Shown here: in pieces, positions 3,134 through 59,426 of the stretch | How the letters are laid out: each line of letters opens with the position of its first letter | How positions within the stretch are numbered: the stretch's first letter is position 1 | DNA from: an uncultured Methanosarcinales archaeon | GTDB lineage: Archaea > Nanobdellota > Nanobdellia > Woesearchaeales > GW2011-AR15 | Assembly: GCA_964441565.1 (NCBI GenBank) | Contig: CAYTWW010000004.1 | Coordinates: forward strand, 35,407-99,406 | Length of the DNA: 64,000 nucleotides | Direction: 5' to 3' | The notes under the pieces: model-generated | The model's database searches: none | The model's input: the letters and a program-made list of their open reading frames with translations, nothing else | Told to the model about the DNA's origin: nothing | Made by a program: the position numbers and the translations under genes

Positions 3134-3158
3134 TGACAGGTCAGGTGGGGAGTCTGCC

Positions 3159-18541: not shown

Positions 18542-18855
18542 ATCGATGACAGGTCCACACCAAGAGAGTTCTTTATCATCTCGTCAAGATGCTCCTGTTC
18601 TTCCTTCTCTGAGAGAGCCATGAATATAGGCTTGGAAAGATTGTCGAGTCTCTTCCTCATCTCCTTGGACAGCTGTGCCATGGTCTTCTCATCCGAGACG
18701 ACTATCCCTGCGTCCCTGGTGGTCGCGAGGTCTGAGAAGAGCCTGTCAAGCTCCTGCTGGCTGGCTCCTTCAGGGACACTCACGATATCCCGTATCCCTG
18801 CGAGCTCGAACCCCAGCGTGAACTGCGAGTCCCCCACAACAAATATCCTGGCCAT
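18538..18855 (-). CDS. atpF: A1AO ATP synthase subunit F
   Basis: 105 aa, [21 protein letters not shown]…. Position between C and A. Confidence 0.8.
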
Positions 18856-18864
18856 CTTCCAATC

Positions 18865-20431: not shown

Positions 20432-20654
20432 GACCGACTATCAGGATCGCGACGACAAGGCCGAAGATGACTATCGACTCAGGGATGACAGTGAGGATAA
20501 GCCCTTTTCCGAAAAGCTCCTCCTTCTCAGCCATCGCACCGACAGCTGCAGTGCCAATCGCCTGCTCTGCCATCGCAGTCGCGATCGCTGTCGCTCCTAT
20601 AGAGAGTGCCGCACCCAGCGCCACCATTCCTGTTCCTACATCTACCATTTTCAT
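20418..20654 (-). CDS. atpK: A1AO ATP synthase subunit K (proteolipid c, single hairpin ~8 kDa)
   Basis: MKMVDVGTGMVALGAALSIGATAIATAMAEQAIG…LILTVIPESIVIFGLVVAILIVG. Two TM helices, with the conserved carboxylate (E) in helix 2. Confidence 0.9.
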   Translation of the reverse strand: MKMVDVGTGMVALGAALSIGATAIATAMAEQAIGTAAVGAMAEKEELFGKGLILTVIPESIVIFGLVVAILIVGLAQA

Positions 20655-20660
20655 TTCCTC

Positions 20661-22535
20661 CTATCTTGATTGGCCGAACGCCTTGAACCTCTGTCCTCCA
20701 CCCTTGAAGAACTTGCCGAAGAACTCCACATAATGGAGCCTCAGGCTGTGGAGGAATGGGCTAAGTATGCCCAGCGCGATATTTATAATGTGTCCTATCA
20801 CAAGCACGAAGATGCCGATCACTATGCCAGGTCCGCCTGAATGGAACAGTTCGCCTGACAGATCATTGACGACGACAGCCAGGGAGACTGATGCGAGGCC
20901 GACTGCCATGAGCCGAGCATATGAAAGGATGTTGCTTAGTATTCCAGGAAGCTCTAGCGCTCCTCTTATGCCTTCGCCTAGGATTATGAGGACAATCGCC
21001 ACAGCTGAGATTGCTATGAGCGGTATCATCGGAGGGACTATGAGGCTCGCGATCTGCCCATATTGCCCAGACAGGACCCCCAGGTTGCCCAGAAGCCAGA
21101 TCAGGAGCGGAGTGAGGAGCAGCCATCCAGCTTTCTCCATCACCGCATGCTTCAGCCCATGATGCCTGTATATGTTCACAAAACCGATGATATGCCCGAT
21201 CATCACATGGACGATACCGATCAGGACAGACAAAGTGAGCAGGTCAGTTATCTGGTGGGACCTTGATAGGAGATGGGGGAAGTGTATCGTCTCATGCCCA
21301 AGCTCGATCTCCTCAAGTCCGAATGCCTCTCCGAAGACCATGCCGAAGACAATGGTCGACAAGGATGCTATCATCAATGCATCCAGTATCATCCTTGCTC
21401 CTGGCATCTTCTTCTTCAGGAAGAAGAACAGGCCTAGAGTTATGATCCCGTATCCTACATCTCCCAGCATGAATCCGAAGAATATAGGGAAAGTCAGGAA
21501 CATGAAGAACGTCGGATCTATCTCTCCGTATCTGGGAAGCGTGTAGAGGTCCATGAAGAACCTGAATGGTTCCACAAGCTTCGGATGGTTGAGGGACACC
21601 GGAGCCTCCTCATGCACCTCCTCTGCCTGGATGTCGATCTTCCCTTTCGCGCTCTTCATTAGACGCTCCGTCATCCCTCTTACCTTTGCTGTCGGGACAT
21701 AGCCTCTTATTATGAATGTGTTCTCTGATGTCGCGAACCTGAGAGGCGCTTCTGCTATCTCGTTCTTGATTGTTGCCATCCTCTCAGCTGAGACAAGCAT
21801 GCTCCTGTTGGCTTTGGAAAGGTCTGACAGCTGCTTCTTTATCCTATCAAGCTCTGACTGAGCCCTCTCTGCGGAATCTCCCAGTTTCCTGTGCCTGAGC
21901 CCCGGAGTGCCTTTGATCTTGTACTGCTCCCTGATATATGGCACTTCTATCGGAATAAAATCTGCTGACTGGAGGAGCTTCTCTGCTTTCTCCTTCCTCC
22001 CTTTATCGACAAACAGGGCGAGGGCATATATCCCTTCTACCTTCTCTTCTGCATATGCCGCCTTCCTGAGGGCGGAGTCAACTTCCTCGCCTATGCTTCT
22101 CCTCGCATAGCCAATATAATATAGAGGGAAGCCAGGAAGCTCAAGATTGAGCGCCTTGAGGCTTGCCTGCTGCTTCTTAGGGCTGAGCAGATGGATGGCC
22201 TTCTCATGGAATCCCTTGCGCTCGACAAGCTCCAGGACCTTGGGATATAGTTCATCTGCTCTTTTCCTGGCTTCCTCCAGGGTGATATCCTTCTCCATCT
22301 CGCCAGGCTTTATGCTGAGATAGGACATCAGCGTCCTGAGCCTCACAAGGAGCGTCGATACCTCCTCATTGTCAAGGAACGGCCGGCCCAGATCGAACAG
22401 GTCCTCCCCCTCTTCCTTTGAGTAGTCGACTATATGGAACTGGCTCTGGCGGTGCAGCTCCTCGATCACTTCCCTCATCGCGCTTTTTGCGCCGACAAGA
22501 GTGACCTTTGACATGCGTTCAGGCTGTATCATCAT
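20661..22535 (-). CDS. atpI: A1AO ATP synthase subunit I (a-subunit, membrane stator)
   Basis: 624 aa. The N-terminal half is soluble and the C-terminal half is polytopic (…RLMAVGLASVSLAVVVN…). Confidence 0.9.
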   Translation of the reverse strand: MMIQPERMSKVTLVGAKSAMREVIEELHRQSQFHIVDYSKEEGEDLFDLGRPFLDNEEVSTLLVRLRTLMSYLSIKPGEMEKDITLEEARKRADELYPKVLELVERKGFHEKAIHLLSPKKQQASLKALNLELPGFPLYYIGYARRSIGEEVDSALRKAAYAEEKVEGIYALALFVDKGRKEKAEKLLQSADFIPIEVPYIREQYKIKGTPGLRHRKLGDSAERAQSELDRIKKQLSDLSKANRSMLVSAERMATIKNEIAEAPLRFATSENTFIIRGYVPTAKVRGMTERLMKSAKGKIDIQAEEVHEEAPVSLNHPKLVEPFRFFMDLYTLPRYGEIDPTFFMFLTFPIFFGFMLGDVGYGIITLGLFFFLKKKMPGARMILDALMIASLSTIVFGMVFGEAFGLEEIELGHETIHFPHLLSRSHQITDLLTLSVLIGIVHVMIGHIIGFVNIYRHHGLKHAVMEKAGWLLLTPLLIWLLGNLGVLSGQYGQIASLIVPPMIPLIAISAVAIVLIILGEGIRGALELPGILSNILSYARLMAVGLASVSLAVVVNDLSGELFHSGGPGIVIGIFVLVIGHIINIALGILSPFLHSLRLHYVEFFGKFFKGGGQRFKAFGQSR

Positions 22536-33213: not shown

Positions 33214-33987
33214 ATGGATCCAATCAGGGACTACACAAAAGAGAAGGTGATCTATGTGTCTAGAGGTGACTGGGGAGAAGAGCCTTCGACGATAGTCTGG
33301 AAAGGTCTTTCTCCTGGCATGGTGCCTGTCGCGATAAAAAGGACAAAGGATAGATCAGGCTACAGGCGCGAGAGAGATGCTCTCGGAAGGCTCACAGGCT
33401 ACCCTAATATCGTCCAGATGGTAGATTCCTTTCATGAGGATCCATGGTATTACATGATTACAACATACGAAGGAGAGAAGGACCTTCCGCATTGCAAGGA
33501 TAGCTTGGGTCTTCCGGATATGCTCCAGCGGATGTCTAAGATATCATATGCCCTTGATCACACCCATAAGTGCGGGATAGTGCATGCCGATGTGAATCCG
33601 GTGAACATCCGGATCAACGGCAGCACGACCACTTTGATAGACTTCGACCTGGCTAGGGGTCTCTATATGCCCATCCTTACTATCGGTCTTGAAAAACCCC
33701 TTTACTATTGGTCAGCCAGGGACAGGAACTCCATCATCACCCTGGCAATGCCAAGACTGGATATACACTCTGTCGGAGCCACTATCGATAATTTCGCAGG
33801 TGATCTGTTGTATGGCGAATGTTGGCATGGGTTCCTTCACTCCCACAGCAAAGAACCCAGGGGAGCGGATGCAGAAAAGCTTTCAAGACTGCTTCATAGG
33901 ATCATGGAAGAGACGAAGACTGCCTCTGACCTGGCTCACCTTCTGGAGGATTCATCAGGTAATCCTGCATTCACGAGGCTATCATGA
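33214..33987 (+). CDS. Protein-kinase-like fold protein (ePK/Kdo-WaaP lipopolysaccharide kinase-like)
   Basis: Catalytic loop HKCGIVHADVNPVNIRI (HxDxxxxN) and DFDLA (DFG-equivalent). Confidence 0.6.
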   Translation: MDPIRDYTKEKVIYVSRGDWGEEPSTIVWKGLSPGMVPVAIKRTKDRSGYRRERDALGRLTGYPNIVQMVDSFHEDPWYYMITTYEGEKDLPHCKDSLGLPDMLQRMSKISYALDHTHKCGIVHADVNPVNIRINGSTTTLIDFDLARGLYMPILTIGLEKPLYYWSARDRNSIITLAMPRLDIHSVGATIDNFAGDLLYGECWHGFLHSHSKEPRGADAEKLSRLLHRIMEETKTASDLAHLLEDSSGNPAFTRLS

Positions 33988-37876: not shown

Positions 37877-38353
37877 ATGAAAAGAACAATAATCCTGTTC
37901 ATGCTCATGATTGCTTCCGTAATGGCGGAAAGCATCCAGCCTATGGCATGCGATCCATTCGCCCCATCGGCAGAATTCGAAGAGGGAGCAGACATCTGCT
38001 TCTACGGCACAGGCTTTGATGAGCCAGTCGACCTTGCTCTGAGGGACAAGGCCACAGAAGAGGAGGTAGGGACCATAATCGATGCTGATGTCGACAATGG
38101 TGTCCTGAGCACTGTCTTCTCAGGCAGGTTCTTCGAGAATGTGAAGGCTGGCATCTACAGGCTCTTCATCAATCTCAGAGACAGAGACCTTGAGTACTCT
38201 GAAGACATCGTAGTGAGAGGCCAGATGGCTGATGACGATGACGATGATGACGATGATCCGACTGATCCTTCAGTCCCTGAATTCGGGACGATAGCTGCGG
38301 GCCTTGGCCTTATTGGCGCTGGAGCATATGCTGCAAGGAGGCGAAGGATATGA
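37877..38353 (+). CDS. Secreted PEF-CTERM protein with poly-Asp (D9) acidic tract
   Basis: GGGGGT RBS, signal MKRTIILFMLMIASVMA. …GQMADDDDDDDDDPTDPSVPEFGTIAAGLGLIGAGAYAARRRRI*. Confidence 0.8.
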   Translation: MKRTIILFMLMIASVMAESIQPMACDPFAPSAEFEEGADICFYGTGFDEPVDLALRDKATEEEVGTIIDADVDNGVLSTVFSGRFFENVKAGIYRLFINLRDRDLEYSEDIVVRGQMADDDDDDDDDPTDPSVPEFGTIAAGLGLIGAGAYAARRRRI

Positions 38354-39291
38354 GAAAGATACTTTTCATACTAGCTCTGCTCTCAGCTGCAGTGTTGGCA
38401 GATTGCGACCAGGTCGCTTGCCTCAATCAGGCTGAGAAAGCATGGTGCTCCCCAGGAGACTCTGCCTGTGTATTCTCTGAATGCGGCTTTTTTGAAGAGA
38501 GCGATGCAGATGGAGACAGCTGGACAGACAGCTGCGATGCATTCCCACAGGATGCTTCAGAGCAGGTGGATTATGACGCAGATGGCTGCGGCCACAACTC
38601 AGACATCGACGATCTCGACCATTCTGAAGTCTCTGGCTGTGAGGTCATCACAGACGATGATGACGATGATGACGATGACGACACAGAGGATACAGACGAG
38701 GATGGCATCGAAGACGAGTCTGACAACTGTCCAACTGTCGCAAACCCTGACCAGGCAGATAATGACGGAGATGGCCTAGGCGATGCATGTGACAACTGTC
38801 CTTCGACATCAAATCCTGACCAGGCAAATGCTGACGCAGACGGAACAGGCGATGCTTGCGAAGTTGTCGAGAAGAAAGAAAGCATCAGCTCAGGGAGCGG
38901 AGGAAGCGGACTAGGCACAGGCATCTGCATGTCAAGGGCATGGAGATGCGGTGAGTGGTCAGCATGCGAAGAAGGAACGCAGACAAGGACCTGCGATCAG
39001 ATCAACTTCGACTGCAAGGGTGACGAGAACAAGCCAAAGGAATCGCAGACCTGCGAGATGCCTGTCGAAGAAGTGATCCAGACACAGGACCAGCAGTCTG
39101 AAGAGACGGAAGAAGAGACCCAGGAGGAGACGGCAACAGTCACTCCTGTAAAGGAAGATAGTGCAGGGCTTTCAGGCATCACAGGAAATGTGATAGACGT
39201 GCCTAGGGGAGAATTCAACCCATGGATCCTGCTTCCAGTGTTCCTCGGCGGACTCTTGCTGATCTTCCTGTTCTTCAGGAAGAAGAACTGA
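38350..39291 (+). CDS. Secreted Cys-rich thrombospondin-type-3-repeat (Ca-binding) surface protein with poly-Asp tract and a C-terminal TM/basic anchor
   Basis: Signal MRKILFILALLSAAVLA. TSP3 repeats DNCPTVANPDQADNDGDGLGDACDNCPSTSNPDQANADADGTGDAC. D10 tract. C-terminus …NPWILLPVFLGGLLLIFLFFRKKN*. Confidence 0.7.
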   Translation: MRKILFILALLSAAVLADCDQVACLNQAEKAWCSPGDSACVFSECGFFEESDADGDSWTDSCDAFPQDASEQVDYDADGCGHNSDIDDLDHSEVSGCEVITDDDDDDDDDDTEDTDEDGIEDESDNCPTVANPDQADNDGDGLGDACDNCPSTSNPDQANADADGTGDACEVVEKKESISSGSGGSGLGTGICMSRAWRCGEWSACEEGTQTRTCDQINFDCKGDENKPKESQTCEMPVEEVIQTQDQQSEETEEETQEETATVTPVKEDSAGLSGITGNVIDVPRGEFNPWILLPVFLGGLLLIFLFFRKKN

Positions 39292-39848: not shown

Positions 39849-40952
39849 CTACACAGCTTTCTCAGCGACTCTCCAGGTCCACATGACATTGATGATGTAG
39901 TTCCAGACGAATGCGACAAGGATGCCGACCAGATTGGCAGCCAGGTAATACATATTGAACTTCTCTACAAGCAGCAGCAGTATCAGGTAGTTGATGGCAA
40001 ATCCTCCGGCTGCTGCGATATGGAACTTAGCGAGCTTGCCCATGAATGAACCGCCTTTGACTTCCCTGAAGGTCCAAAGGTTGTTAAGGAAGAAATTCCA
40101 GAGGATGGAGAGTTCGACAGCTATCGGGCTTGAATACAGATACTTGATCTTCGCATGCTCTGTGAGAAGCCATAGGAACAGCATGTTGATGAAGATGCCT
40201 GTCCCTCCTACAAGGCTGAACTTGATGAGCTTCTCGCTTGACTTCATCCTGAGACGCACACTGTTCATGAAGAACTCCTGCATGTCCTTCCTGCTGATCT
40301 TCGACTCCCCATGCTGCCTGAGCCGGAAGACCAGAGGGATCTCTTTTACACGAGCGCCGTGCCTGAGGAATTCGTAGAGGACTGTGGATTGGAACGCATA
40401 TCCCTTGGTCTCAAGATCCTCTTTCTTTATCTTCTTGTATATCGAGGTCCTCAGCGCCCTGTAGCCGGATGTGCAATCATTGACCTTGTAGAGCCCTGCT
40501 ACGAACCTGGCGAAGAAGTTCCCCCCTCTTGATATGATCTGCCTTGTGATGGGGAACCCAGGCGTGCCTCCGCCTGGGATGTACCTCGAACCTATCACGA
40601 AATCATATCCTTCGTCGATGGCACGCATGAAATGCGGGATGAGGTCCGGAGGATGCTGCAGGTCAGCGTCCATCTCGAGCATCACATCTGCTTTCAGATG
40701 ATGCGCCGCATGGTCGAAGCCTCGGATATAGGCAGCGCCAAGCCCATTCTTCTCCCCAAGGAGGAGATGTATGTTCTTATGCTTCTGCTGGAATTTCCTG
40801 ACTTCGTCGGCTGTGCCGTCAGGACTCTTATCATCGACGACAAGTATGTGCATGTCATGCTTGATCTTCCTGAACTCTTCAAGGAGGAGGGGGATGAGTT
40901 TTTTGATATTCTGCTTTTCGTTATATGTCGGTAGGACAATCACTGCTTTCAT
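39849..40952 (-). CDS. GT2 glycosyltransferase of the dolichyl-phosphate mannose/glucose synthase (Dpm1-like) type fused to a C-terminal GtrA-like membrane domain
   Basis: Internal start MKAVIVLPTYNEKQNIKKL…, …LVVDDKSPDGTADEV…, DAD (…EMDADLQHPP…). C-terminal 4-TM GtrA-like region. Confidence 0.8.
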   Translation of the reverse strand: MKAVIVLPTYNEKQNIKKLIPLLLEEFRKIKHDMHILVVDDKSPDGTADEVRKFQQKHKNIHLLLGEKNGLGAAYIRGFDHAAHHLKADVMLEMDADLQHPPDLIPHFMRAIDEGYDFVIGSRYIPGGGTPGFPITRQIISRGGNFFARFVAGLYKVNDCTSGYRALRTSIYKKIKKEDLETKGYAFQSTVLYEFLRHGARVKEIPLVFRLRQHGESKISRKDMQEFFMNSVRLRMKSSEKLIKFSLVGGTGIFINMLFLWLLTEHAKIKYLYSSPIAVELSILWNFFLNNLWTFREVKGGSFMGKLAKFHIAAAGGFAINYLILLLLVEKFNMYYLAANLVGILVAFVWNYIINVMWTWRVAEKAV

Positions 40953-41058
40953 AAGCAGGATTCCAGTGAAAGGACTATAAAAATATTTCCCGAATAATCT
41001 GAAGGTACGAGACGTCATCTCTAAAGGGTGATAAACTTTATATCTAGGATCCTACCAC

Positions 41059-45827: not shown

Positions 45828-47261
45828 CTACTTTAAAAATTTTGCCAGAGACACAAAATCCTGTTTCCTGTAGATGAGGTTCTGCATAGGGAAGATGATC
45901 ACAGAAGCTGATTGGTCCTGGAGCCTGTGATCCGCATTCAGCTCAGTATAGTCGCGGTAGAGACCTATGGACCAGTGCTCGCTACCTGCCTGGATGGAGA
46001 AGAAGGTGTTAGGCACTTCAGGCGGGGACATGTTTTTCCAATGTGCCAGGACCATCATCTCAGCCCCGAGCTTGGCAAAAACCGGGACATTTGTCTTCAC
46101 GCAGAGACCTTTCCTGTTGACATCATACATCGTCCTCTTCAAAGTAGGCATGGAGATGCCCAGCTTCTTCGCCAGCTCTGACTTCTGTCTGCAGCCAGTG
46201 ACAGCAAGCTGGACCAGCCTTTTCTCCCTCTCTGTGACTTCTACCAATTCTGTCTTCACCATCCTTGGCACAGGCTCCTGGCCAAGGCTGAAGAACCTGT
46301 CGACTATGCCTGCGAAACTGAAGAAATTCATCTTGGATCTCTGGTCGAAGACGTGAAGCATCTCATGCTCAGGCATGAAATTCTTCCTATGATCATGATT
46401 CATCGCCTGCACTGACGACCTGGTCTCCTGATATTCCCTGAAGTCATGGTACATGGTCAGCGAGAATCTTGCTCCGCTGATCACAAGACAGAATATCAGG
46501 TTTGTGCACTTGTCAAGGAACCCGGTGATTTCTTTCCATGCGATAGGATCCTCTTTTGAGATATCCATCTTCTGCCTTGCGTAGGACATATGGATATAGG
46601 GGAATCCCAGAAGGTCATATCGTGGGAGGCAGGCAGGGTAGAAGTAGCCTTCCTTTAGCAACCTGTTCCTGATGCAATTCAGGCTGACCCGGTTCATCCT
46701 CAATTTATCAGCCAGTTGGCTCATGGTGAGGTCCGGATATGCGACCAGGCCGTAGAGCGCCATCTTCTCCATCCTGGTCAATGGGATCTTGGCCAGCTGC
46801 TTCTTCTGGGGGATGTCAACCTGCCTCTTCAACTGAGCTTCCTTCTCTTTGAGTAGCTCCTCGAGGTGGGACTGATAGCTTTCATGTTCCTTCTCTTCCT
46901 TCTTGATATGATCGACATCCTTGGCCTGGACAATCGCCACCTGGTCTCCTCCCAGCTCCATGAGCCTCGCAGAAAGGAGCATGAGATGTATCTCTCCTGA
47001 CGATAAGCGGAACTGGACTTCAAAATCTGTGATAGTTCCTTTCTCCTGAAGCCTCCTATAGAATAGTTCCCTCTGCTTGAGGTTCACCCATGTCCTGCCA
47101 GCAATCTCTTTGGTTCCGATGACCTGGTCATCCTGATAGAAACCATATGACTTCAAGGCTTCGTTTATGTGGAGGATCCTGTTGTCTTCCAAGCGCAGGA
47201 CAAAAGCAGGATCAGGAAGAGCCATGAATATCCTCCTGAATGTGTCATCGTTTTGTTCCAT
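45828..47261 (-). CDS. PAS-domain transcriptional regulator with two HTH modules
   Basis: N-terminal PAS (…FRRIFMALPDPAFVLRLEDNRILHINEA…), coiled-coil linker, HTH-like …LTMSQLADKLRMNRVSLNCIRNRL… and …KSELAKKLGISMPTLKRTMYDV…. Confidence 0.55.
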   Translation of the reverse strand: MEQNDDTFRRIFMALPDPAFVLRLEDNRILHINEALKSYGFYQDDQVIGTKEIAGRTWVNLKQRELFYRRLQEKGTITDFEVQFRLSSGEIHLMLLSARLMELGGDQVAIVQAKDVDHIKKEEKEHESYQSHLEELLKEKEAQLKRQVDIPQKKQLAKIPLTRMEKMALYGLVAYPDLTMSQLADKLRMNRVSLNCIRNRLLKEGYFYPACLPRYDLLGFPYIHMSYARQKMDISKEDPIAWKEITGFLDKCTNLIFCLVISGARFSLTMYHDFREYQETRSSVQAMNHDHRKNFMPEHEMLHVFDQRSKMNFFSFAGIVDRFFSLGQEPVPRMVKTELVEVTEREKRLVQLAVTGCRQKSELAKKLGISMPTLKRTMYDVNRKGLCVKTNVPVFAKLGAEMMVLAHWKNMSPPEVPNTFFSIQAGSEHWSIGLYRDYTELNADHRLQDQSASVIIFPMQNLIYRKQDFVSLAKFLK

Positions 47262-49219: not shown

Positions 49220-50755
49220 ATGAAGAGATACCTGCTCATCATCCTGTTCATGGTCCCTGCTCTCGCAGGCTTCTTCATGGCAGGCGACCGTATCTATTCA
49301 AGTGTGCATCCTCCTGACGGCAACAATTACCTGTCCATGATGCAGCAGGCAAAGGAAGGCAGGATCCTCCTGACAAACATGTACACTCCTGAGGATGTCC
49401 CATCGCTCCTCTTCAGGCCTGTCTTCACCCTGGCCGGCTGGGTCTCCGGCCTCACAGGACTCTCAGACCAGATCGTCTATCAGCTTTTCCGCATGGCGGG
49501 GATCGGACTCATCATCTTCTACCTGACAAGATTAGGCAGGCTCTTCTTCAAGGGAAGGCATGAACATCTCTATCTCTACATCGCAATATTCGGAAGCGGC
49601 ATCGGCTGGCTCTTCATCCTCCTATCGACATTCGGCGTCAAGCACTATGGCTCAGTAGACCAATGGATCACTGAAGCCAACAATCTCCTCATCTTCCTCA
49701 GCCATCCCCACACTCTCTTCTCGCTAGCATTCATGATCGCAGGAGCATACCACTTCATGAAAAGCTATGAGAACAGGCAGCTGAAGGATTACCTCATATC
49801 AGCAGCATTCCTCTTCATCGTAGGGATAGAGCATCTATTTGATGTGATAACGATCGGCTCAGCAGTCGCCATCCTCCTGCTCGATGACCTTATCATAACA
49901 AGGAAGCTTGACTGGCAGAGGATCCGGCACCTTATCGTCTGGGGCACGATAATCGTCATCCCATTCATCTACACATATGCGCTCTTCAATGTCCCATCCT
50001 ATTCAGAGTGGAATGATCAGAATGAGCTAGACACTCCTCCTATCCATCAGGTGATATTCGGGTACGGAATAATGGCAGGAGCATCTGCCCTTGCCTTCAT
50101 CCATCTTGCCAGGAATGGATACTCAAAGGTCCGGCCCGAGATAAAGCTGATGATATACTGGATCATCGCGACACTCATCCTCATATATTCCCCGCTCAAT
50201 GTACAGCGCAGGTTCCTGGAAGGCCTGCATGTCCCCATGGCTGTCATGACCGGCATATTCATCTTCTCAGTCCTCCCTCACTACATCAAGGACAGGAGGC
50301 TTGCCTCAGGTCTTTTGATCATCATGATCCTTTTCCTCCCTCTGACAAACATCTACCTGTTCCATAAGAGGACAGTCGCGCAGGACACAGGGAGAGGATC
50401 ATTCCCATACAATGTGCCTGCATATCTGGAACAGGGGGAGGACGAGGCCCTCAGATGGATAGCTGAGAAGACCTCACCTGGCGAGGTAATTCTATCTGGC
50501 TACAATATCGGTAACTATATCCCTGCTTATGCGAACAGACGAGTCTTCCTCGGCCACTGGGCACAGACAATCAGGTTCTATGAGAGAGCTGAGATGGTCG
50601 ACAGCTTCTACAAGACAGGAGACCTCTCGCTCATCGACCATGAGATAGATTACATCTATTATGGCGTAGACGAGAAAGCTTTAAATCCAAGCCTTTCGCT
50701 GCCAGGTGAGGAAGTCTTCCATAACGATCTGGTGCAGATATACAAGGTACGATGA
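49220..50755 (+). CDS. Polytopic membrane protein, putative GT-C-like glycan-processing enzyme
   Basis: 511 aa, ≥10 TM, large extracytoplasmic C-terminal domain. The stop overlaps the flippase start. Confidence 0.45.
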   Translation: MKRYLLIILFMVPALAGFFMAGDRIYSSVHPPDGNNYLSMMQQAKEGRILLTNMYTPEDVPSLLFRPVFTLAGWVSGLTGLSDQIVYQLFRMAGIGLIIFYLTRLGRLFFKGRHEHLYLYIAIFGSGIGWLFILLSTFGVKHYGSVDQWITEANNLLIFLSHPHTLFSLAFMIAGAYHFMKSYENRQLKDYLISAAFLFIVGIEHLFDVITIGSAVAILLLDDLIITRKLDWQRIRHLIVWGTIIVIPFIYTYALFNVPSYSEWNDQNELDTPPIHQVIFGYGIMAGASALAFIHLARNGYSKVRPEIKLMIYWIIATLILIYSPLNVQRRFLEGLHVPMAVMTGIFIFSVLPHYIKDRRLASGLLIIMILFLPLTNIYLFHKRTVAQDTGRGSFPYNVPAYLEQGEDEALRWIAEKTSPGEVILSGYNIGNYIPAYANRRVFLGHWAQTIRFYERAEMVDSFYKTGDLSLIDHEIDYIYYGVDEKALNPSLSLPGEEVFHNDLVQIYKVR

Positions 50756-52209
50756 CAGCAGCAAGAAGGATAGCTAAGAACGCAGGCATCATGTTCATTG
50801 GGGAGAATGCCACAAAAGTCCTGAGCATAATACTCGTCTTCCTTATTGCCAGGCTTCTTGGCGATGTAGACTATGGGAAGTTCACCTTCGCCCTATCCTT
50901 CACAGGTCTCTTCTACATGCTCATAGATTTCGGCACCAGGCTGCTCCTTGTCAGGGAGATCGCCCAGAACAAGGATAAGATACAGAAGATAATCTCGAAC
51001 GTGTTCACCCTCAAGCTTATCACCGGGATCCTGGTATATATCATCCTCAACGTGACTGCATTCCTTCTCGGATACGACAATGTGACTCTTATCGCTATAT
51101 CGATTGCTGGACTCGGCATCATGTTCGAGAGCATGAGCGCGACCCTTTTCGCAATATACCAGGCACATGAGAGGATGGACATACCTGTCATCGCAAAGAT
51201 ACTGCGTGTGATCGTGAGGTTCGCGATCACAGTCCCTATACTTCTCATGGGAGGGACATTCATGCAGGTCCTGATAGCCGCGATTTTTGTCCAGTTCCTC
51301 GACTTCCTGTTCCAGCTCATCGTGACCTTCAGGTTGTATATGAGGCCTGCTCTCGGATGGGATCTCAAGTATATGTTTTCTCTGTTGAAGCGCTCCCTGC
51401 CTTTCCTCCTGGCAGGGGTATTCGTATCAGTTTATTTCAGGATAGATGTGACCATGATGTCCAAGATGGCGCCTACATCCCTTCCTGGTGTCTACACAGC
51501 CGTCAGCAGAGACGCTATCATCGGATGGTACAGCGCAGCATATAATGTTCTCGACGGTATCTCTTCAGTACCTATCGCAGCGATAGCAGCGCTCCTTCCT
51601 GTGGCTATCATCTTCAGGAAGGAATCTGGTGAGAAGCTGCTTGATCTGTTCCGCACATCATCCAGATATCTCACATATCTCTCTATACCCATGGCAGTAG
51701 GAGTGAGCATGCTCGCTGAGAAGATCGTCCTCCTGATCTACAAGGACGCATATATCAATTCAGTCCCTGCGATGATAATCCTTTCCTGGACGATAATACC
51801 CCTGTCCATCAACTATGTCATGGGCACGATGATGGTCGCTGTGCAGAAGGAGAAGGAAGTGGTAGCGGTCCTGATGGGTAATGTGATAATAAATATCATC
51901 CTCAACATCTTCCTCATCCCCAGGCTCAGCCTCTATGGGGCGGCGATGACAACTGTCCTGACAGAGGTATTCTACCTCTCCGGCTATTATTTCCTCATCT
52001 CGCGAGAAGTTGGCAAGCTGGACTGGGCTGCGATGTTCGTCAAACCCTCGATCTCAGCAGCTGTGATGGCGCTTGTCCTCAGCACTGTCGACTATCATCT
52101 ATTCCTCATGATTCCTATCGGCGTAGTAACATATTTCGGTTCCATGTTCGCACTCAGGGCCTTCACTTCAGAAGACATAGACCTTCTCAGGCATCTTGTC
52201 AAGAGATGA
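50752..52209 (+). CDS. Polysaccharide/oligosaccharide flippase (MOP superfamily, Wzx-like)
   Basis: 485 aa, ~14 TM, typical PST family. Confidence 0.65.
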   Translation: MTAARRIAKNAGIMFIGENATKVLSIILVFLIARLLGDVDYGKFTFALSFTGLFYMLIDFGTRLLLVREIAQNKDKIQKIISNVFTLKLITGILVYIILNVTAFLLGYDNVTLIAISIAGLGIMFESMSATLFAIYQAHERMDIPVIAKILRVIVRFAITVPILLMGGTFMQVLIAAIFVQFLDFLFQLIVTFRLYMRPALGWDLKYMFSLLKRSLPFLLAGVFVSVYFRIDVTMMSKMAPTSLPGVYTAVSRDAIIGWYSAAYNVLDGISSVPIAAIAALLPVAIIFRKESGEKLLDLFRTSSRYLTYLSIPMAVGVSMLAEKIVLLIYKDAYINSVPAMIILSWTIIPLSINYVMGTMMVAVQKEKEVVAVLMGNVIINIILNIFLIPRLSLYGAAMTTVLTEVFYLSGYYFLISREVGKLDWAAMFVKPSISAAVMALVLSTVDYHLFLMIPIGVVTYFGSMFALRAFTSEDIDLLRHLVKR

Positions 52210-52210
52210 T

Positions 52211-55200
52211 CTACATTCTGAGCAGCTCGTAGACCTGCTTCTCCTGCCGAATCATCTTCAGGGATGAGAACAGCTCAGACCTGGTGCTGCATGGGATCTC
52301 CAGGCAGTGCTGGTCAAGGAATGACCTGATCTCTCCACTGTTCCTGTAATACTCGTACTCATTGTCAGCCATGTATGGAAGCGCCAGATACAAGCCCTCA
52401 AGGCTATGGAGAGGGAGCCCTGACAAGAGCTGCAGAGGCATCTCAGCCTTCTTCCGGAAGTCCAGGTTTATCACATTCTCAGGCAGTTTGAGGACAGAGC
52501 TCTTCTGAGGTTCGAATTCTCCCAGATAGATATTGTATAGCACCCTGTACATCTCGAGCCTGGAGTCAGATGACATGAGGACCTTTGCGACATCAGGCCT
52601 CCCGACAGACTCTGAAACCCACTGCTGAACAAGGCTTGTGTTCGAGAGCATCCTGAAGCTGTCCTCGCTCATCGCATGCAGGTGTCTGGCAAAGTCATAG
52701 AGAGTATGGGCCTCGCTGCCCTCGGGAAGGACAAGAGGCCTTGCTGCCTTCTTTGTCATGAGCTTTCCGTCTGCTGGCCTTTTCTTGTGTCCCCCTCTGC
52801 CGAAGATGAAGAAGAGTATCGAGCAAAGTAGACATACGACCAAAAAGCCGATTATCGCATCAGCGTGGCTGTTCTTTGCCTGCTTCGGCTCTTCGATCGA
52901 GGAGGACTTCTCTTCGAGCCTCACTTCCTGCTGCTCAGGTACGACAGGTATGGAAGGCTGCTCCATCACAGGAGGACTTGATGTCTTTTCGATTATCTCT
53001 GGTTCTGGCTCTGCTTTTACCACAGATGAACGGCTGAAGCTGCCTCCACCGCCGCCACCACCGCCGCTGCCTCCGCTGCCTCCGCTGCCGCCACCACCGC
53101 CGCCGCTATCACCGCCGCTTTCCTCCTCTTCGACAGCAGCAGTTGCAAGGCTGTATTCAGTGAAATGAGGCACATCAAAGCTGACATTCTCACCTAGCGA
53201 GATGTTCTCGCATATCGGGCAAGGCAGGCCGTCTTTTAGTATGACAGGGTCTGCGAGAGTGACATGGTAGAATGTAATCCTTGCGCTGCGGTTGAGGACT
53301 GGCACCAGTGAGGAATTGATGTATACCTTCCTATCCTCTATCCCGACAAATGAATCCAGGTCGACTGCAGTGACATTGACCTCTCCTCTCAGATTTATCC
53401 TGCCATGGTCAGATATCTCTAGCGTGATCCCCTCGAAAGTCAGGTTGTTCCTATTGAAGTCAGTAGTATGTCCATCAAACTTAGATGCATTCGGATAACC
53501 GGGATCATTGCTCCTTGTTCGTAGGTTGTGGACACCTGAGCTGTAAGCATTCCCATATCTATCAGTCCCATTCACCTTCCAATAATAGTCAGTGTCATTC
53601 TCAAGACCAGTGGCTGTCATCTGGTGGCTTGTGGCCTTTGCTGTGGAATGGAGATAGCTGGGAGCTGACAGGTCCGCATATGTCGAGATGAAGAGGCTAG
53701 CATTCCCTGATTCGTTCAGCGTAAGAGATACCCTGAACCTGTCTGATGAGATGGAGTTGTTCGATATCGCTATGATCGCAGGCGGAGTGATGTCCTCTGG
53801 CTCATTCTCAAGAGTCCGGAAGAAAGAGCTGTTGGTTATGCAGTTATTGTGCCTGTCGCACGTCGTCACATTGAAGTCATAAATAGCGTTGGCTGTCAGG
53901 TCTTGAAAAAAAAAAGTATGCACAGTAGTATAGACTGAGTCGACGACTGTGCCAAGGATCGTCCAGATGGTAGAGTTCGTGGCCTCATTTGTGATGATTG
54001 TGATCTGGCCAGTCTGGTTTGTCGTGATATTCTGATGGATCAACTCAGGATAGCTGATATCCTCCCCGGAACCGGTGATCACATAGTAGTTCGAGTTCTG
54101 GCCGGTTGTTATGTCGAAAGTCACCATGTTGCCTGAGACTGAGAGGACAGGCACGTCAGATCCATCGTCCTTCGTGATTATGAATCCCTGGGTCAGCGAA
54201 AGGTCAGAGCAGTCCACAGTCACTCTCCTTGTCTTAGGTACATCGATATACGGATCCCGCTCCATCGTGTTGGCTGTGAGGACTATTCTTTCTGACGAGA
54301 CCCTGAGATGTGCCTGTGTAGGTTGGTCTGATTCGAATAAAGTTTTTTCTCCGTCATGTATGTATGTTGCATTGAATGCAGCTATCTCTCCAGCCGAATA
54401 TGCGAGCGCCCATCCATCAGTCGACTTGCCTGCATAGGATACTGTTCCATCATTGTCTCCGTCAAAGAGGACTGTGTTCCCTCCGTCAATGAGGCCTTTC
54501 TCAGTCCCATTGATAGCAGTCACTCCCTCTTCAGAGAAGGTGTTCCAGTGATGCGAGAATACAAGGTCCAGGGAAGGATCGCCGATGTCTGTGTAGTAAT
54601 AGCGCCTCCCATACTTGCCGAGGCCTCTGGACCCGCCTGAACAGCTTGTCTTGGAGAAGCAGTAATTTACATTGGTCCTCCCTCCGCCGAAATACACTGG
54701 CGAATCAGAATAGATGAGCTGCGTGGACAGGAAGATGTCCTGGCCAGTCGCAGCATTAGTCCTCCTCGCAGTCCAGTTGAGCCCGCTCACAGTAGATGCG
54801 AACTCATCATCGATGTTGATGAAGTTGTGATAGATGCGGTCCCCCTGCGTCACACCTGACACCTTTGTCCTCTTGACCACTGTGTCGCCGAACTTCACGA
54901 AATACTCCTTCACAGGATCAGCCTTGTAGTACGGACGCCACACGAATGCGCCGGCGAGATTCGCGTCCGCAGTACCCATGTAATCCTCGATGTCGCCGCC
55001 GTACTGCAGTGGAAACTGGCGGAAATTAGGATAATCGGCAGGATAAAGTGCTGGATCACATGTTTTCATTCCATAATACTGGTTTTGTCCATGTTCTCCA
55101 CATTCAGACCTGTAATAGCTTACTAACCCCTCGACATTCTGTGTGTCGTTCGCTAAGCTGATTCCATTTTTCCAGAAATCTGCCCTTGTATCATCTTCAT

Positions 55201-57613
55201 ATGGGACTTGCTCGTAATCAATAAATGGCTCCCCCAGGATATAAAGATAATAGCCCTGAGCTTGGGAGTGTCCCATCCCTCTTTCCTCACCACCATCAAT
55301 CATCAGAAAAGTGTCATTGGAGAAAGTATAGTTCGTCCTCACAATCAAGGTGTCTTCTGCATTGTCAAATACGATTTTTGGCATAGCAGACTCTGGAGCC
55401 TCTTCAGAATCAACTGAGTCAAGGATCTGCTTGTAGAGATATGAGAGAGGATATGTTCTCATGGCACTCGATTCAGATATGTTGAAAGCATACTGTCTAA
55501 TCCAAAGTGATGTCTTCTTAGTGTTCAGGTCATCGCACATCAGAGCAAAGAAAAGCGGAGTATCCCACCCTGTGAACAAGCTGTCGTCGATCTTCTGATA
55601 GCTGTTTGAATCTCCTTTTTGCACTGACCTAAGGTAAAAAGGCTCATCATTTCTGGAATCTGACCCTTTGTAGTTACCATCAAGCAGCATAACAATATGC
55701 TCTCTTGCCATAGCACAAAAGGCATTATTATACTCTTCAATATCTATGAGCGAGTTCCGATATCTCATCCAAAGGACATCAGCTAGGTGAGGAAAAGCAT
55801 AAGTTCTGTAACCATATCCTTCCTGATACATATGCCAGGAGTCATTCTTGTATGACTGAAGTATCTTGTCTTCCCTGTCCATCCATTCATCTGGTATGTT
55901 CTTGCCCCAGTACTGGTCGCTGAGATTATGGATAAGAGTAGGGTTCTCGGCATACTCTCCGATGAAGCTATAGCAGAATCCACCCATCCCTGATCCAAAA
56001 GCCAATCCATTGTCCCCTGCAATCAAAGCGTCATTGTCGAGATCAGGGCGATCTCCGGGATGGTTAACGAACAGCTGGCAGATATCATGAGCTTTTCGCG
56101 AAAGATCCTCCTGCTCCTCTTGTGTAAAATAGGGAACCATCATATCATAGGCAATAGCAACATGAAGGTATTGATGGAACGCCTGGTTGGAAGTGAATGA
56201 CGAGAGGCTCCTGTTCAGCCAGCCATGTATGTGATCACTTGCAACCTTACAATTGTTTGTGTTTTCATATCCATTATGCATACAACTCATTGCAGCCTGG
56301 CGTGCATTCACAGCATAGGGGTCAGCGCTGTCTCCTGAATATCCTTCATTCCAGTCGGAGGATACAAAGTTATTAATCCAATTGCAGGAGTCATAAGCCA
56401 CCTCGTTTTCTGGATCAGAGCAAAAAGGGATGTAGGAATTATACTCATCAAGTGAGAAATGAAACCATGGCCTGTCCTTGAAGGGGATGTAGATCCTTTG
56501 GGCATTGTTATCCTCAACATCCTCCTCTACACTATCGTCAGTATCAATCTTAACAAATCCTGAATGCCATCCATATGACTTCTCCCAATTGCATATTATC
56601 TCTGTTTCTTCCATCCCTGAAAGAGAAAGGCTGTCTTCACATAAAACAGTTCCATCCATATCCACTTTGTAGACGAAGGGTCCGGTTGGCTCTGATCCAG
56701 CGTTCCTTATAATGATTGAGAGAGGCATTTCACCTATTGGATCTAGAAGATTACTTCCAGTGTAGTCTCGTGGCAAGGTGTACCTGATAGATTTAACATA
56801 AATATCTTTTTCAGGAGGCGAACCAAGTCGTTCCTCATTGTAAATTGCCTGGACATCTAATGTAGAGAAATTGCTTCTTCTCCAGATTCTCAGCTCATCT
56901 AGGTAACCTACAATATCCTGAGAAAATATCCCTGCTCCAACTCTTAGCATGCTCCCAGAAGTCATATTTGGGGTACCGAAGGGTGTGCTTGAATTCACAA
57001 CCAGTTCTCCGTTCTTCCATACATAGCTCCTCTGTTTGTCATATTGTAGGAAGTAGAAAGTCCATTGATCTGTAGGTGACTCCTGAGTATCCCCTGGAAA
57101 AGCTTTCACTTCACCTCCTTGCGCCCATACATGAAGGTTCATCCCATAGCCTGCTTCAGTCACATGCAGGTATTTAGGCCCTCCACAGCATCCTTCATGC
57201 CCGATATCCATAATGTCAAAAGAGTTTGCTCCTGAGACCGAAATAGTTGGATATAACCAGAAAGCCACTGCAATGCCGTCCGAAAGCTGAAATTTACTGG
57301 ATGAGTTGAGATAGTCAGCACCACCATCAGCAGAGAAATCAGCGCACCCGTTAATCTTGGATTGTGCTCTATCAAGCCATTCACCTGAGCGAAATGGAGT
57401 AAACTCGTGATCGTAGCCGGAATAATCCGTCCATGGCGATGAAGAATCATCGAAAGTCAGGTTCAGTACAAGATCAGATGAAAATGAGGAGCTAGCGGGA
57501 AAAATCACAAAGGCATCAGGTTTGAAACCAAGGAGATACACCACAGCCAGGCATGCACTGACAAGAAAGATGAGTGCAAATATTTTGAATATCCTTATTC
57601 CCCCTGCCATCAA
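52211..57613 (-). CDS. Giant (1800 aa) type-I membrane surface protein with an N-terminal LamG/ConA-like domain, a polysaccharide-lyase-like (heparinase II/III-like) central region, a Gly/Ser linker, a single TM and a ~190-aa cytoplasmic tail
   Basis: N-terminal signal/anchor MMAGGIRIFKIFALIFLVSACLAVVYL. …EEEESGGDSGGGGGGSGGSGGSGGGGGGGGSFSR… linker. TM AIIGFLVVCLLCSILFFIF followed by a basic stop-transfer. Domain calls are inferred from sequence patterns only. Confidence 0.5.
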   Translation of the reverse strand: MMAGGIRIFKIFALIFLVSACLAVVYLLGFKPDAFVIFPASSSFSSDLVLNLTFDDSSSPWTDYSGYDHEFTPFRSGEWLDRAQSKINGCADFSADGGADYLNSSSKFQLSDGIAVAFWLYPTISVSGANSFDIMDIGHEGCCGGPKYLHVTEAGYGMNLHVWAQGGEVKAFPGDTQESPTDQWTFYFLQYDKQRSYVWKNGELVVNSSTPFGTPNMTSGSMLRVGAGIFSQDIVGYLDELRIWRRSNFSTLDVQAIYNEERLGSPPEKDIYVKSIRYTLPRDYTGSNLLDPIGEMPLSIIIRNAGSEPTGPFVYKVDMDGTVLCEDSLSLSGMEETEIICNWEKSYGWHSGFVKIDTDDSVEEDVEDNNAQRIYIPFKDRPWFHFSLDEYNSYIPFCSDPENEVAYDSCNWINNFVSSDWNEGYSGDSADPYAVNARQAAMSCMHNGYENTNNCKVASDHIHGWLNRSLSSFTSNQAFHQYLHVAIAYDMMVPYFTQEEQEDLSRKAHDICQLFVNHPGDRPDLDNDALIAGDNGLAFGSGMGGFCYSFIGEYAENPTLIHNLSDQYWGKNIPDEWMDREDKILQSYKNDSWHMYQEGYGYRTYAFPHLADVLWMRYRNSLIDIEEYNNAFCAMAREHIVMLLDGNYKGSDSRNDEPFYLRSVQKGDSNSYQKIDDSLFTGWDTPLFFALMCDDLNTKKTSLWIRQYAFNISESSAMRTYPLSYLYKQILDSVDSEEAPESAMPKIVFDNAEDTLIVRTNYTFSNDTFLMIDGGEERGMGHSQAQGYYLYILGEPFIDYEQVPYEDDTRADFWKNGISLANDTQNVEGLVSYYRSECGEHGQNQYYGMKTCDPALYPADYPNFRQFPLQYGGDIEDYMGTADANLAGAFVWRPYYKADPVKEYFVKFGDTVVKRTKVSGVTQGDRIYHNFINIDDEFASTVSGLNWTARRTNAATGQDIFLSTQLIYSDSPVYFGGGRTNVNYCFSKTSCSGGSRGLGKYGRRYYYTDIGDPSLDLVFSHHWNTFSEEGVTAINGTEKGLIDGGNTVLFDGDNDGTVSYAGKSTDGWALAYSAGEIAAFNATYIHDGEKTLFESDQPTQAHLRVSSERIVLTANTMERDPYIDVPKTRRVTVDCSDLSLTQGFIITKDDGSDVPVLSVSGNMVTFDITTGQNSNYYVITGSGEDISYPELIHQNITTNQTGQITIITNEATNSTIWTILGTVVDSVYTTVHTFFFQDLTANAIYDFNVTTCDRHNNCITNSSFFRTLENEPEDITPPAIIAISNNSISSDRFRVSLTLNESGNASLFISTYADLSAPSYLHSTAKATSHQMTATGLENDTDYYWKVNGTDRYGNAYSSGVHNLRTRSNDPGYPNASKFDGHTTDFNRNNLTFEGITLEISDHGRINLRGEVNVTAVDLDSFVGIEDRKVYINSSLVPVLNRSARITFYHVTLADPVILKDGLPCPICENISLGENVSFDVPHFTEYSLATAAVEEEESGGDSGGGGGGSGGSGGSGGGGGGGGSFSRSSVVKAEPEPEIIEKTSSPPVMEQPSIPVVPEQQEVRLEEKSSSIEEPKQAKNSHADAIIGFLVVCLLCSILFFIFGRGGHKKRPADGKLMTKKAARPLVLPEGSEAHTLYDFARHLHAMSEDSFRMLSNTSLVQQWVSESVGRPDVAKVLMSSDSRLEMYRVLYNIYLGEFEPQKSSVLKLPENVINLDFRKKAEMPLQLLSGLPLHSLEGLYLALPYMADNEYEYYRNSGEIRSFLDQHCLEIPCSTRSELFSSLKMIRQEKQVYELLRM

Positions 57614-58638
57614 TCCTTAAAAGAAGTATGCTGTATAAAAAACTTGCTTAAAATACCCCTGGCAACACCCTCAGCGTATCTCGCTGAAACAGCAATTAGA
57701 AGTGCAGCGATGAACATCAGGATCATTCTAACAGGGAAGGGGAATATTGATACTGCAGAAGTAACAATTGAAAAAACTGTGAAATGAGTTAAGAAAAGAT
57801 AAAGAGAAAGCTTTCCAATCTCTTCCAGCAAGGGTGCCCGCATATCTCTGAGAAAAGAATAGAGTAATAGAAACAGGCTGATTGTAAGTGCTTGCTGACC
57901 AATGATCAGGAAAAGTGAGTCTACAAGTGTTGAAATGATTGATAGAATAAGAATGCAAAAGTATAGAGAAACCTGTTTTGATGAAATCAGCCTGGAGGAA
58001 AAATGAAAAACAAGTACCCCAAATACAAGCTCTGATAATCTTGAAAAAATAAGAACCCTATACCAGAGGTCTGAGCTGGGATTAGAAAGAAAAATCAGCA
58101 TTCTAGTGATAATTGACAATGCAATGCAGCCAATGCCTGTCGCTCTAGGATACTTTCTATAAAATCCGACAAGACCAGGGAAGAATATTATGATGGAGAG
58201 TAAAAGAGTGATGTACCACCAACTGCCATCAACAGCACCGGAATACTGAAGGAAAAAACCATGTATTCCGAGAAGATGTAGCAGAATTGCGCCTGGCGTT
58301 AGGTAAAGTCTTCCTTTGAGGATAAGAGGGAATACTATGAACATCAGGAGAAGCGTCCAATACAGGGGTAGAATACTAAGTATCCTTTTTCGTAGCCAGT
58401 TACGATAATCATTGTTCCTTGAGAAATTGACTCCTGCAACAATGATGAATAACCCCACACCTGCATATCCGAGTGACATAATAGTCATCAGGAGTGAAGT
58501 AGTATTTCCTCTTAAAAAATCCAGTAACAAACCCTTGGCCAGAGGCCAATTATAAGACATACCAAACGCATGGAACAGCATCACCAAAAGGATTGCTATA
58601 CCCTTAATCTTGTCTATTGTGTGATCTCTTCCTGTCAC
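57610..58638 (-). CDS. Acyltransferase family 3 (membrane O-acyltransferase, OatA/WecH-like)
   Basis: …IDKIKGIAILLVMLFHAFG… is the typical AT3 N-terminus. 10 TM. Confidence 0.75.
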   Translation of the reverse strand: MTGRDHTIDKIKGIAILLVMLFHAFGMSYNWPLAKGLLLDFLRGNTTSLLMTIMSLGYAGVGLFIIVAGVNFSRNNDYRNWLRKRILSILPLYWTLLLMFIVFPLILKGRLYLTPGAILLHLLGIHGFFLQYSGAVDGSWWYITLLLSIIIFFPGLVGFYRKYPRATGIGCIALSIITRMLIFLSNPSSDLWYRVLIFSRLSELVFGVLVFHFSSRLISSKQVSLYFCILILSIISTLVDSLFLIIGQQALTISLFLLLYSFLRDMRAPLLEEIGKLSLYLFLTHFTVFSIVTSAVSIFPFPVRMILMFIAALLIAVSARYAEGVARGILSKFFIQHTSFKD

Positions 58639-59351
58639 TTCTGAACCTTAATCTTACCTAGCCTGAATCTGAGTTCCGCAGAGTTTTTGATATAGTCTCT
58701 TACAGTCTTCCCTATCTTTACCGTGCTACCTGAATCATCTATCCAGTCAACAGGAATCTCTTTTATCTTGAAACCTATTTTTTCAGCAATCAATAGCAGC
58801 TCAGTATCAAAGAAGAATTCATTGTCTTTTATGAATGGTTCCAGTTTCATGAACACTTCTTTTCTGACTCCTTTAAAACCGCATTGCATATCATGTATCT
58901 TTGTAAAGTAGAAAGCCTTAATGAGAGCATTATACCCCCTTGATAAAACCTCTCTCTTGAATCCTCGCTGTACAACTGAACCTTTGATTAGTCTGGATCC
59001 CACAACAATGTCTGCTCCCTGTGAAAATTCTCTCAGCATGCACGGAAACGCATCCAGACTTGTCGATAGGTCTATGTCCATGAATGTCAGTATGTCGCAA
59101 TCACTCTCCTTCCATACCGTTCTGAGGGCAACTCCCCTTCCCTTTATAGGGATCCGCACATATTTAACAAATGGAAATTCCCTTGAGATCCTTTCCATCA
59201 CTGCGGGAGTATTATCCGTGGAGGCATTATCAGCAACCACTATCCGGCATACAGTAATGTGCATTTTTTTGAGAAATTCAATCGTAGACCTGATGCTCTT
59301 TTCCAATGTTTCTGCTTCATTATATACCGGAAAAGTAATGAGGACATCCAT
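58635..59351 (-). CDS. GT2 glycosyltransferase (dolichyl-phosphate hexose transferase-like)
   Basis: MDVLITFPVYNEAETL…, …VVADNASTDNT…, …DIDLS… (DxD). Confidence 0.8.
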   Translation of the reverse strand: MDVLITFPVYNEAETLEKSIRSTIEFLKKMHITVCRIVVADNASTDNTPAVMERISREFPFVKYVRIPIKGRGVALRTVWKESDCDILTFMDIDLSTSLDAFPCMLREFSQGADIVVGSRLIKGSVVQRGFKREVLSRGYNALIKAFYFTKIHDMQCGFKGVRKEVFMKLEPFIKDNEFFFDTELLLIAEKIGFKIKEIPVDWIDDSGSTVKIGKTVRDYIKNSAELRFRLGKIKVQK

Positions 59352-59426
59352 AATGCGTAAAAAGAGAATACAATATAAAAGGGTTTCGAATTAGTGACTT
59401 TGATAGTAAAATTATAATATTAGTGA

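Follow-up and report, generated by a model that had tools for sequence, protein, structure and literature searches.

The gene considered here is carried by the minus strand of a 64,000-nucleotide stretch of archaeal DNA (positions 35,407 to 99,406 of contig CAYTWW010000004.1, assembly GCA_964441565.1; hereafter the window) and encodes a large surface protein, hereafter the target. Its core, a block of 740 amino acids (aa; residues 376-1115), is modelled with a heparinase II/III-type fold, namely an N-terminal alpha/alpha toroid followed by an antiparallel beta-sandwich. As a whole, the target is best read as a membrane-anchored surface protein with heavy N-glycosylation, from a Nanoarchaeota/Woesearchaeota-type DPANN archaeon. 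From outside to inside, it can be read as a LamG domain, a CARDB-like domain, the core, two FN3-like repeats, a further beta domain, a stalk, a transmembrane (TM) helix and a cytoplasmic tandem repeat. The explanation favoured here, held tentatively and at a little short of an even chance, is that of a membrane-anchored glycan lyase or epimerase that faces outward and cooperates with the glycan-assembly locus next to its gene, its core representing a new sequence family of the heparinase II/III fold class. DPANN archaea are mostly uncultured, and the building of their envelope and their contact with other cells are largely unknown. The target provides a concrete candidate in this field, belonging to a family that annotation resources do not recognise and being tied to a conserved glycan-assembly locus.

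The lyase-fold core and its candidate active site

The AlphaFold2 model of the core was built from nine sequences, which are the full yield of a profile search of a set of 5.8 billion proteins and some of which are new. The layout of the model is clear, with helices at core positions 13-368 and strands at core positions 372-740. Its fold matches heparinase II (score 21.6), the polysaccharide lyase family 40 (PL40) ulvan lyase (21.2), PL15 (19.4) and dermatan-sulfate epimerase 1 (18.4). Further matches are found with PL17, PL8, PL12, PL35 and xanthan lyase, and partial matches restricted to the sandwich rank after all of these. An earlier note on this DNA, made from the sequence alone, had proposed lyase-like modules and had named a fold prediction devoid of toroid and beta-sandwich as the outcome that would speak against them; since the model contains both halves, the fold assignment stands.

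The core is also the best conserved region of the protein, with 39-53% identity to eight homologues, as against 6-42% in the tail and 18-48% in the stalk domains in the same comparison. Across 57 full-length cores, positions that are polar or aromatic and at least 93% conserved fall in both halves and include W465, Q477, N535, R580, E598, Y602, Y605, D668 and R706 in the helical half, and R759, D767, H782, D807, R810, N816, K988, Y1001 and D1051 in the sandwich half.

Regarding the candidate catalytic residues, the corresponding strand of solved enzymes was retrieved with a consensus motif, which matched heparinase III (5jmd, 4mmh), PL35 (8khv), PL15 Atu3025 (3a0o) and heparinase II. The motif region of the family (57 sequences) was then compared by hhalign with segments of four solved lyases (5jmd, 4mmh, 8khv and 3a0o). 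In this short-segment comparison, H782 of the GHSQAQ...GEPF..D strand is paired with the His of HCQPD, HAQPD, HAHMD and HSHGD, with a probability of 43.6% (P 2.4e-4) as against at most 1.2% for 30 column-shuffled controls. The His strand is thus likely homologous to that of the heparinase III (PL12), PL15 and PL35 lyases, the comparison being suggestive, not decisive. In Atu3025, His531 is the catalytic His on the H-x-H/Q-x-D strand of the sandwich. In the target, H782 on the sandwich would act with a Tyr and an Asn of the toroid, for which Y602/Y605 and N535, near-invariant and with a lyase-like spacing, are the candidates. The core would abstract the C5 proton of a uronic-acid residue, leading either to beta-elimination or to epimerisation. 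From these residues and the fold, chances appear roughly even that the core is an active lyase or epimerase.

Several known enzymes share the toroid and beta-sandwich with the core, namely the PL12, PL15, PL17, PL21, PL39, PL40, PL35 and PL8 lyases. Unlike these, the target is archaeal and carries its core within a membrane-anchored multidomain protein of ~1,800 aa with a cytoplasmic domain, encoded in a locus that is biosynthetic and not catabolic. Dermatan-sulfate epimerase 1 (6hzn) is eukaryotic and Golgi-located, and shows 7% identity to the core in the structural alignment. The chondroitin lyase ODV-E66 of baculovirus (3vsn) is viral, N-terminally anchored and much smaller and, in contrast to the target, has neither LamG module nor stalk nor cytoplasmic domain.

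The glycan-assembly locus and the weighing of alternatives

The target gene is preceded on the same strand by genes for a family 2 glycosyltransferase (GT2) and an acyltransferase-3, and the stop-to-start overlaps between the three genes together with the TATA-like TTTTATAT upstream of the first make a single transcript most likely. The best NCBIfam similarities of the GT2 are a dolichyl-phosphate hexose transferase and AglJ. On the other side, the gene is met by a convergent pair encoding a 511-aa polytopic protein and a Wzx-type flippase. The placement of the gene between a flippase and an acyltransferase-3/GT2 pair, as had been proposed in the earlier note, is therefore borne out. No Pfam or NCBIfam match was obtained for the 511-aa protein, which is a candidate polymerase or a GT-C glycosyltransferase of an unrecognised family. 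Also nearby are a PMT_2/Agl23-like GT-C, a DUF6311-like polytopic protein, GT4 genes, an AsnB-type amidotransferase and a GT-C-like polytopic protein of 432 aa that weakly resembles a putative family of glycosyltransferases.

Much of this neighbourhood is found again elsewhere. In L002, L005 and L016, homologues with 45-50% identity are again accompanied by the module of GT4, Wzx and 511-aa protein, by the 432-aa protein and by a GT2, often as a GT2-GtrA fusion. The Wzx and 511-aa pair is kept in all three loci, and a GT2 adjoins almost all homologues. Because this pattern is conserved across loci, and with the co-transcription predicted from the gene overlaps, the target is functionally linked to outer-face glycan assembly. 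It can be hypothesized that the enzyme works on the outer side of the membrane, where it would trim, release or modify the glycan assembled and flipped by the locus, with the LamG domain supplying glycan binding. Its role would then be analogous to that of the in-cluster glycanases of bacterial exopolysaccharide systems. As with the bacterial in-cluster glycanases and lyases, a putative enzyme of degradative type is encoded among, and most likely co-transcribed with, genes for the assembly and export of a surface glycan, but the bacterial enzymes are small, soluble and periplasmic whereas the target is membrane-anchored, multidomain and archaeal, and the analogy is functional only. AlgL fills such a role in the alginate operon, as an in-cluster exopolysaccharide lyase.

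A number of observations weigh against a glycan lyase or epimerase. At the sequence level, no match to the core was found in Pfam at E<=10 (with the whole protein, four segments of it and 15 diverse members) or in NCBIfam (up to E 1), nor was any PDB chain retrieved at E<=10 with two family profiles; by this measure the core has no detectable membership in Hepar_II_III, Hepar_II_III_N or related families. The core model is moderate, with a mean predicted local distance difference test score (pLDDT) of 59.8, and core positions 144-231, which carry the candidate Asn and Tyr residues, are modelled with a pLDDT below 50, so that the proposed active-site residues of the toroid are supported by conservation and spacing and not by the model. 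With regard to the substrate, no UDP-glucose/GDP-mannose dehydrogenase (UDPG_MGDP_dh-type) domain was detected among the ~43 open reading frames (ORFs) of the window that were scanned, and nothing therefore shows uronic acid in the local glycan; the AsnB-type amidotransferase, just outside the window, gives only a weak hint of a uronic-acid polymer. Finally, synteny with glycosylation genes is equally compatible with the protein being the substrate of their products.

This last point leads to a different explanation, in which the target is a non-catalytic structural glycoprotein, S-layer-like or an envelope scaffold, whose fold has been kept as a rigid or glycan-binding module and which is itself glycosylated by the products of its neighbours. 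It is consistent with the density of N-x-S/T sequons, about twice that expected by chance and reaching 3-4 sequons per 100 aa in some family members, with an operon containing a GT2 that resembles dolichyl-phosphate-hexose synthases, with the outer-face action of the GT-C-like polytopic proteins encoded beside it, and with a C-terminal TM anchor, as is typical of archaeal envelope proteins. S-layer proteins, however, usually diverge fast, whereas the core of the target keeps the identity given above and near-invariant His, Tyr, Asn, Arg, Asp and Glu residues over 57 members while its flanks drift; the lyase-typical His strand is retained as well. A purely structural role seems rather improbable.

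Alternatively, the enzyme could be directed at another cell. As a host-directed adhesin and lyase, it would bind through its LamG domain and cut with its core the acidic envelope polysaccharide of a partner cell, e.g., a methanochondroitin-like polymer, opening access for attachment or exchange, and the adjoining glycan locus would merely decorate the protein. Such an activity is judged unlikely: the operon linkage with glycan-assembly genes conserved in several genomes would be needless for a host-directed enzyme, and the organism has no known host.

Since the enzyme-like ectodomain belongs to a well-understood fold class, its mechanism can be addressed and mutants can be designed easily. If the core is active, it would represent an archaeal branch of the toroid-type lyases and epimerases and would open the surface glycans of Woesearchaeota, or those of partner cells, to biochemical study. 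With an inactive core, the target would be a large glycoprotein that reuses an existing fold, and its interest would be local. The interest lies with specialists in DPANN cell surfaces and in carbohydrate-active enzymes, and no surprise is to be expected at the level of mechanism.

Some further observations concern the locus itself. The stop codons of the wzx and target genes are one base apart (52209-52211), which leaves no room for separate terminators between them. A GT2-GtrA fusion is encoded at 39849-41018 on the minus strand, 11 kb from the target, and in L002, L004 and L005 such fusions adjoin the homologues. Just beyond the flippase module, a 477-aa protein (45828-47261, minus strand) has a PAS domain and two weak helix-turn-helix (HTH)-like stretches, one MarR/TrmB-like at about residues 156-206 and the other at about residues 340-390, and is a candidate local regulator. 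The GC content, ~0.50-0.52 at 52.4-54.8 kb, is ~0.43 from 55.4 kb, a step that lies inside the target gene; it is ~0.38-0.42 across the GT2, acyltransferase-3 and GT-C genes up to the end of the window, and ~0.49-0.51 in the rest of the window. This may reflect a mosaic or an imported glycan island, with a boundary inside the lyase-fold core.

Architecture, topology and cytoplasmic tail

The gene is a single unbroken ORF (52211-57613, minus strand) of 1800 codons when counted from a TTG. The length of 1800 aa given in the earlier note holds for this count, but the ATG at 57610, one codon past the TTG, is the likely start, because it overlaps the stop codon of the upstream acyltransferase as TGATG and because the Joint Genome Institute (JGI) gene call P0001 is identical to the 1,799-aa form. 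A Kyte-Doolittle scan gives only two hydrophobic segments, at residues 11-29 (mean 2.72) and 1586-1604 (mean 3.07), the former of which is also found in most family members. The second is directly followed by the K/R-rich juxtamembrane flank GRGGHKKRPADGKLMTKKAARP. The protein harbours 33 N-x-S/T sequons, versus 15.3 +/- 3.4 in shuffled sequences, and 32 of the 33 are N-terminal to the TM helix. Hydropathy, K/R flank and sequon placement all point to a type I (N-out, C-in) single-pass membrane protein, and the N-terminal signal, single TM helix and sizeable C-terminal part that the earlier note had described are recovered, with a tail of 196 aa. A PGF-CTERM, archaeosortase-type or lipid anchor was considered and set aside, as no NCBIfam match to it was found and ~196 residues lie beyond the hydrophobic segment.

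Among the extracellular modules, the LamG-like jelly-roll anticipated in the earlier note is clearly present, the Laminin_G_3 match (E 4e-11, 43.7 bits) being above its gathering cut-off of 27.6. The CARDB-like domain is borderline in the target, scoring 20.5-22.2 bits with a gathering cut-off of 22.7, and precomputed CARDB matches exist in six homologues (P0003-P0006, P0016 and P0023). The lyase-like block had been estimated at ~1200 aa, which proved too long: it is limited to the 740 aa of the core, and the remainder consists of beta modules that span ~380 aa after the core, namely two FN3-like repeats and one further, membrane-proximal domain. The FN3-like repeats match one another (BLASTP E 0.002), with an additional copy in P0002, and the membrane-proximal domain (residues 1371-1490) has no significant Pfam match. 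Longer ectodomains are found in relatives P0007, P0013, P0015, P0017, P0028, P0042 and P0043, which reach 2,300-3,060 aa with 800-1,500 aa of extra N-terminal modules before the core, including several LamG-like blocks in P0007. Judging from these sequences, family members build their ectodomains in a highly modular way.

Between the beta modules and the stalk, a (GGN)n microsatellite and, further upstream in the gene, an A/T10 tract had been pointed out in the earlier note. Both tracts are present, and the GGN array, in which Tandem Repeats Finder (TRF) reports arrays of period 3/9/12/15 at 53039-53118, encodes the Gly/Ser hinge, but there is no sign of variability. Homologues carry G/S-rich linkers of differing length at the equivalent position; three copies of the gene in other assemblies, 99.8% identical, have exactly the same 23-residue G/S run, so the proposed check for length polymorphism of the GGN tract yields no variation across these copies. 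The FFF encoded by the A10 tract is also found in P0002. Phase variation through either tract was accordingly rejected, the array being in frame as a linker, the A10 tract encoding FFF and the three near-identical copies having the same length.

The cytoplasmic tail had been described as a basic and helical domain of 190 aa. It is indeed large, folded and unusual, but it is not basic overall (K+R 22 versus D+E 24), its basic stretch being confined to the juxtamembrane flank. In the AlphaFold2 model of the tail, which is confident (pLDDT 85.3), a unit consisting of one beta-hairpin and four to five helices occurs twice. This duplication is supported by hhalign on five-sequence sub-alignments (95.4%, E 1.8e-8) and was not detected by BLASTP. 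In most family members, the chain stops fewer than 20 residues past its one to three C-terminal TM helices. Tails of ~200 aa are present in P0001, P0002, P0003, P0010, P0011 and the fragment P0045; the homologous tails align across ~185 residues, and that of P0011 is not detectably similar to the others. On the sequence evidence, the tail domain is specific to one sub-clade of the family. A profile search of the 5.8-billion-protein set gave no match to it outside the family, HMMER searches of Pfam and PDB with the tail and a stacked single-repeat profile gave only chance-level matches, and when the window and 16 loci were searched in six frames, the domain was located exclusively at the C-terminal end of family members. 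Among solved structures, OrfY of Thermoproteus tenax (4cso), a soluble protein with no sequence-level match to the tail, comes closest; the structural match is limited to one repeat (78 residues) and is not significant (Foldseek E 0.34).

Within the favoured explanation, this OrfY-like tandem domain would most likely dock the protein to a cytoplasmic partner or relay occupancy inward. In another explanation, the target would be a transmembrane sensor whose ectodomain binds glycan without turnover and whose tail is the output, as a membrane-tethered regulator. A folded cytoplasmic domain of ~185 aa conserved within a sub-clade would fit this, as would the label 'transcription factor' given to OrfY by its depositors and the PAS plus HTH protein encoded nearby (45828-47261). 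Since most family members have no tail, it cannot be the core function of the family; moreover, the resemblance to OrfY is confined to a single repeat and, at the E-value above, is not significant, and no DNA-binding or enzymatic motif was detected in the tail by the Pfam and PDB HMMER searches. A sensor is very improbable. It would also be quite surprising if the core founded a new DPANN-restricted polysaccharide lyase or epimerase family (in the sense of CAZy) in which one sub-clade uses the OrfY-like tail to couple an intracellular response to the cleavage or binding of an acidic glycan outside the cell, perhaps an envelope polymer of a partner cell such as methanochondroitin. Should this be true, the protein would provide a molecular means of studying the way in which nano-archaea of Woesearchaeota type interact with other cells.

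Family distribution and features of the window

In an exhaustive HMMER search of 1.84 billion proteins, the core profile recovered only 83 cluster representatives. Almost all of them scored very strongly, and no tail of weak matches to other families was observed in this search. As far as these sequences indicate, the family is small, sharply bounded and DPANN-type. All source-named homologues come from metagenome-assembled genomes (MAGs) of Nanoarchaeota or Woesearchaeota, and eleven homologue loci were found among 185,579 species-representative genomes. Three of these eleven loci (L007, L010, which is the same as L005, and L012) are from MAGs titled 'uncultured Methanosarcinales archaeon', the others being from Nanoarchaeota or Woesearchaeota. 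The Methanosarcinales titles could be a naming artefact, or could result from DPANN contigs binned with a methanogen. The coordinates of the target and its surroundings are given in Table 1.

Table 1. Features of the target gene and of the adjoining genes, in window coordinates.
Feature	Position	Strand	Remarks
Whole coding sequence	52211-57610	-	1,799 aa from ATG 57610; stop codon 52211-52213; TTG 57613 is the mechanical ORF start
N-terminal hydrophobic segment, residues 11-29	57527-57583	-	R6/K9 before the segment; putative signal peptide or signal anchor
LamG / concanavalin-A-like lectin domain, residues 96-246	56876-57328	-	Pfam Laminin_G_3
CARDB-like beta-sandwich, residues 296-371	56501-56728	-	Pfam CARDB, borderline
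All-helical half of core, residues 388-743	55385-56452	-	Modelled alpha/alpha toroid
Motif IDGGEERGMGHSQAQGYYLYILGEPFIDY, residues 772-800	55214-55300	-	H782 pairs with His of H-x-Q/H-x-D strand
Beta-sandwich half of core, residues 747-1115	54269-55375	-	
Two FN3-like repeats, residues 1185-1273 and 1274-1368	53510-54061	-	Weak Pur_ac_phosph_N (FN3-like) match
A10 (T10 on coding strand)	53906-53915		In FN3-like repeat 1; encodes T1233-F-F-F1236
Membrane-proximal beta domain, residues 1371-1490	53144-53503	-	Aligned in P0002-P0005
Gly/Ser linker SGGGGGGSGGSGGSGGGGGGGGS, 23 residues, 1503-1525	53039-53107	-	In-frame GGN array
Pro/Glu/Ser-rich stalk, residues 1526-1585	52859-53038	-	
TM helix AIIGFLVVCLLCSILFFIF, residues 1586-1604	52802-52858	-	Kyte-Doolittle mean 3.07
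Cytoplasmic tail, residues 1605-1800	52214-52801	-	Tandem duplication, unit ~80 aa (beta-hairpin plus helices)
Tail repeat 1	52505-52753	-	
Tail repeat 2	52214-52456	-	
Acyltransferase-3 gene (Acyl_transf_3)	57610-58638	-	10 hydrophobic segments; stop overlaps target ATG
GT2 gene	58635-59351	-	First of three-gene operon; stop overlaps GTG start of acyltransferase
TATA-like TTTTATAT	59373-59380		22-29 nucleotides upstream of GT2 ATG
Convergent pair: 511-aa polytopic protein and Wzx-type flippase	49220-52209	+	
Polysacc_synt/Wzx flippase gene	50752-52209	+	
511-aa polytopic membrane protein	49220-50755	+	~10 TM; translationally coupled to Wzx

The window also carries an operon for an A/V-type ATP synthase (14658-22535, minus strand; subunits D, B, A, C, E and I), which is notable for a DPANN-type genome and by which an archaeal chromosome is confirmed. 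No tRNA gene and no Rfam match were found in the window, which is placed on an 86-kb contig of JGI metagenome 3300023203. A second glycan locus, at 1922-13199, encodes three GT4 glycosyltransferases, a GNAT-type acetyltransferase and a polysaccharide deacetylase, as well as a radical-SAM/SPASM protein and a second Polysacc_synt flippase. Two further proteins are encoded on the plus strand, one of 313 aa (38350-39291) with a thrombospondin type-3 repeat match, and one of 257 aa (33214-33987) with a partial protein-kinase domain.

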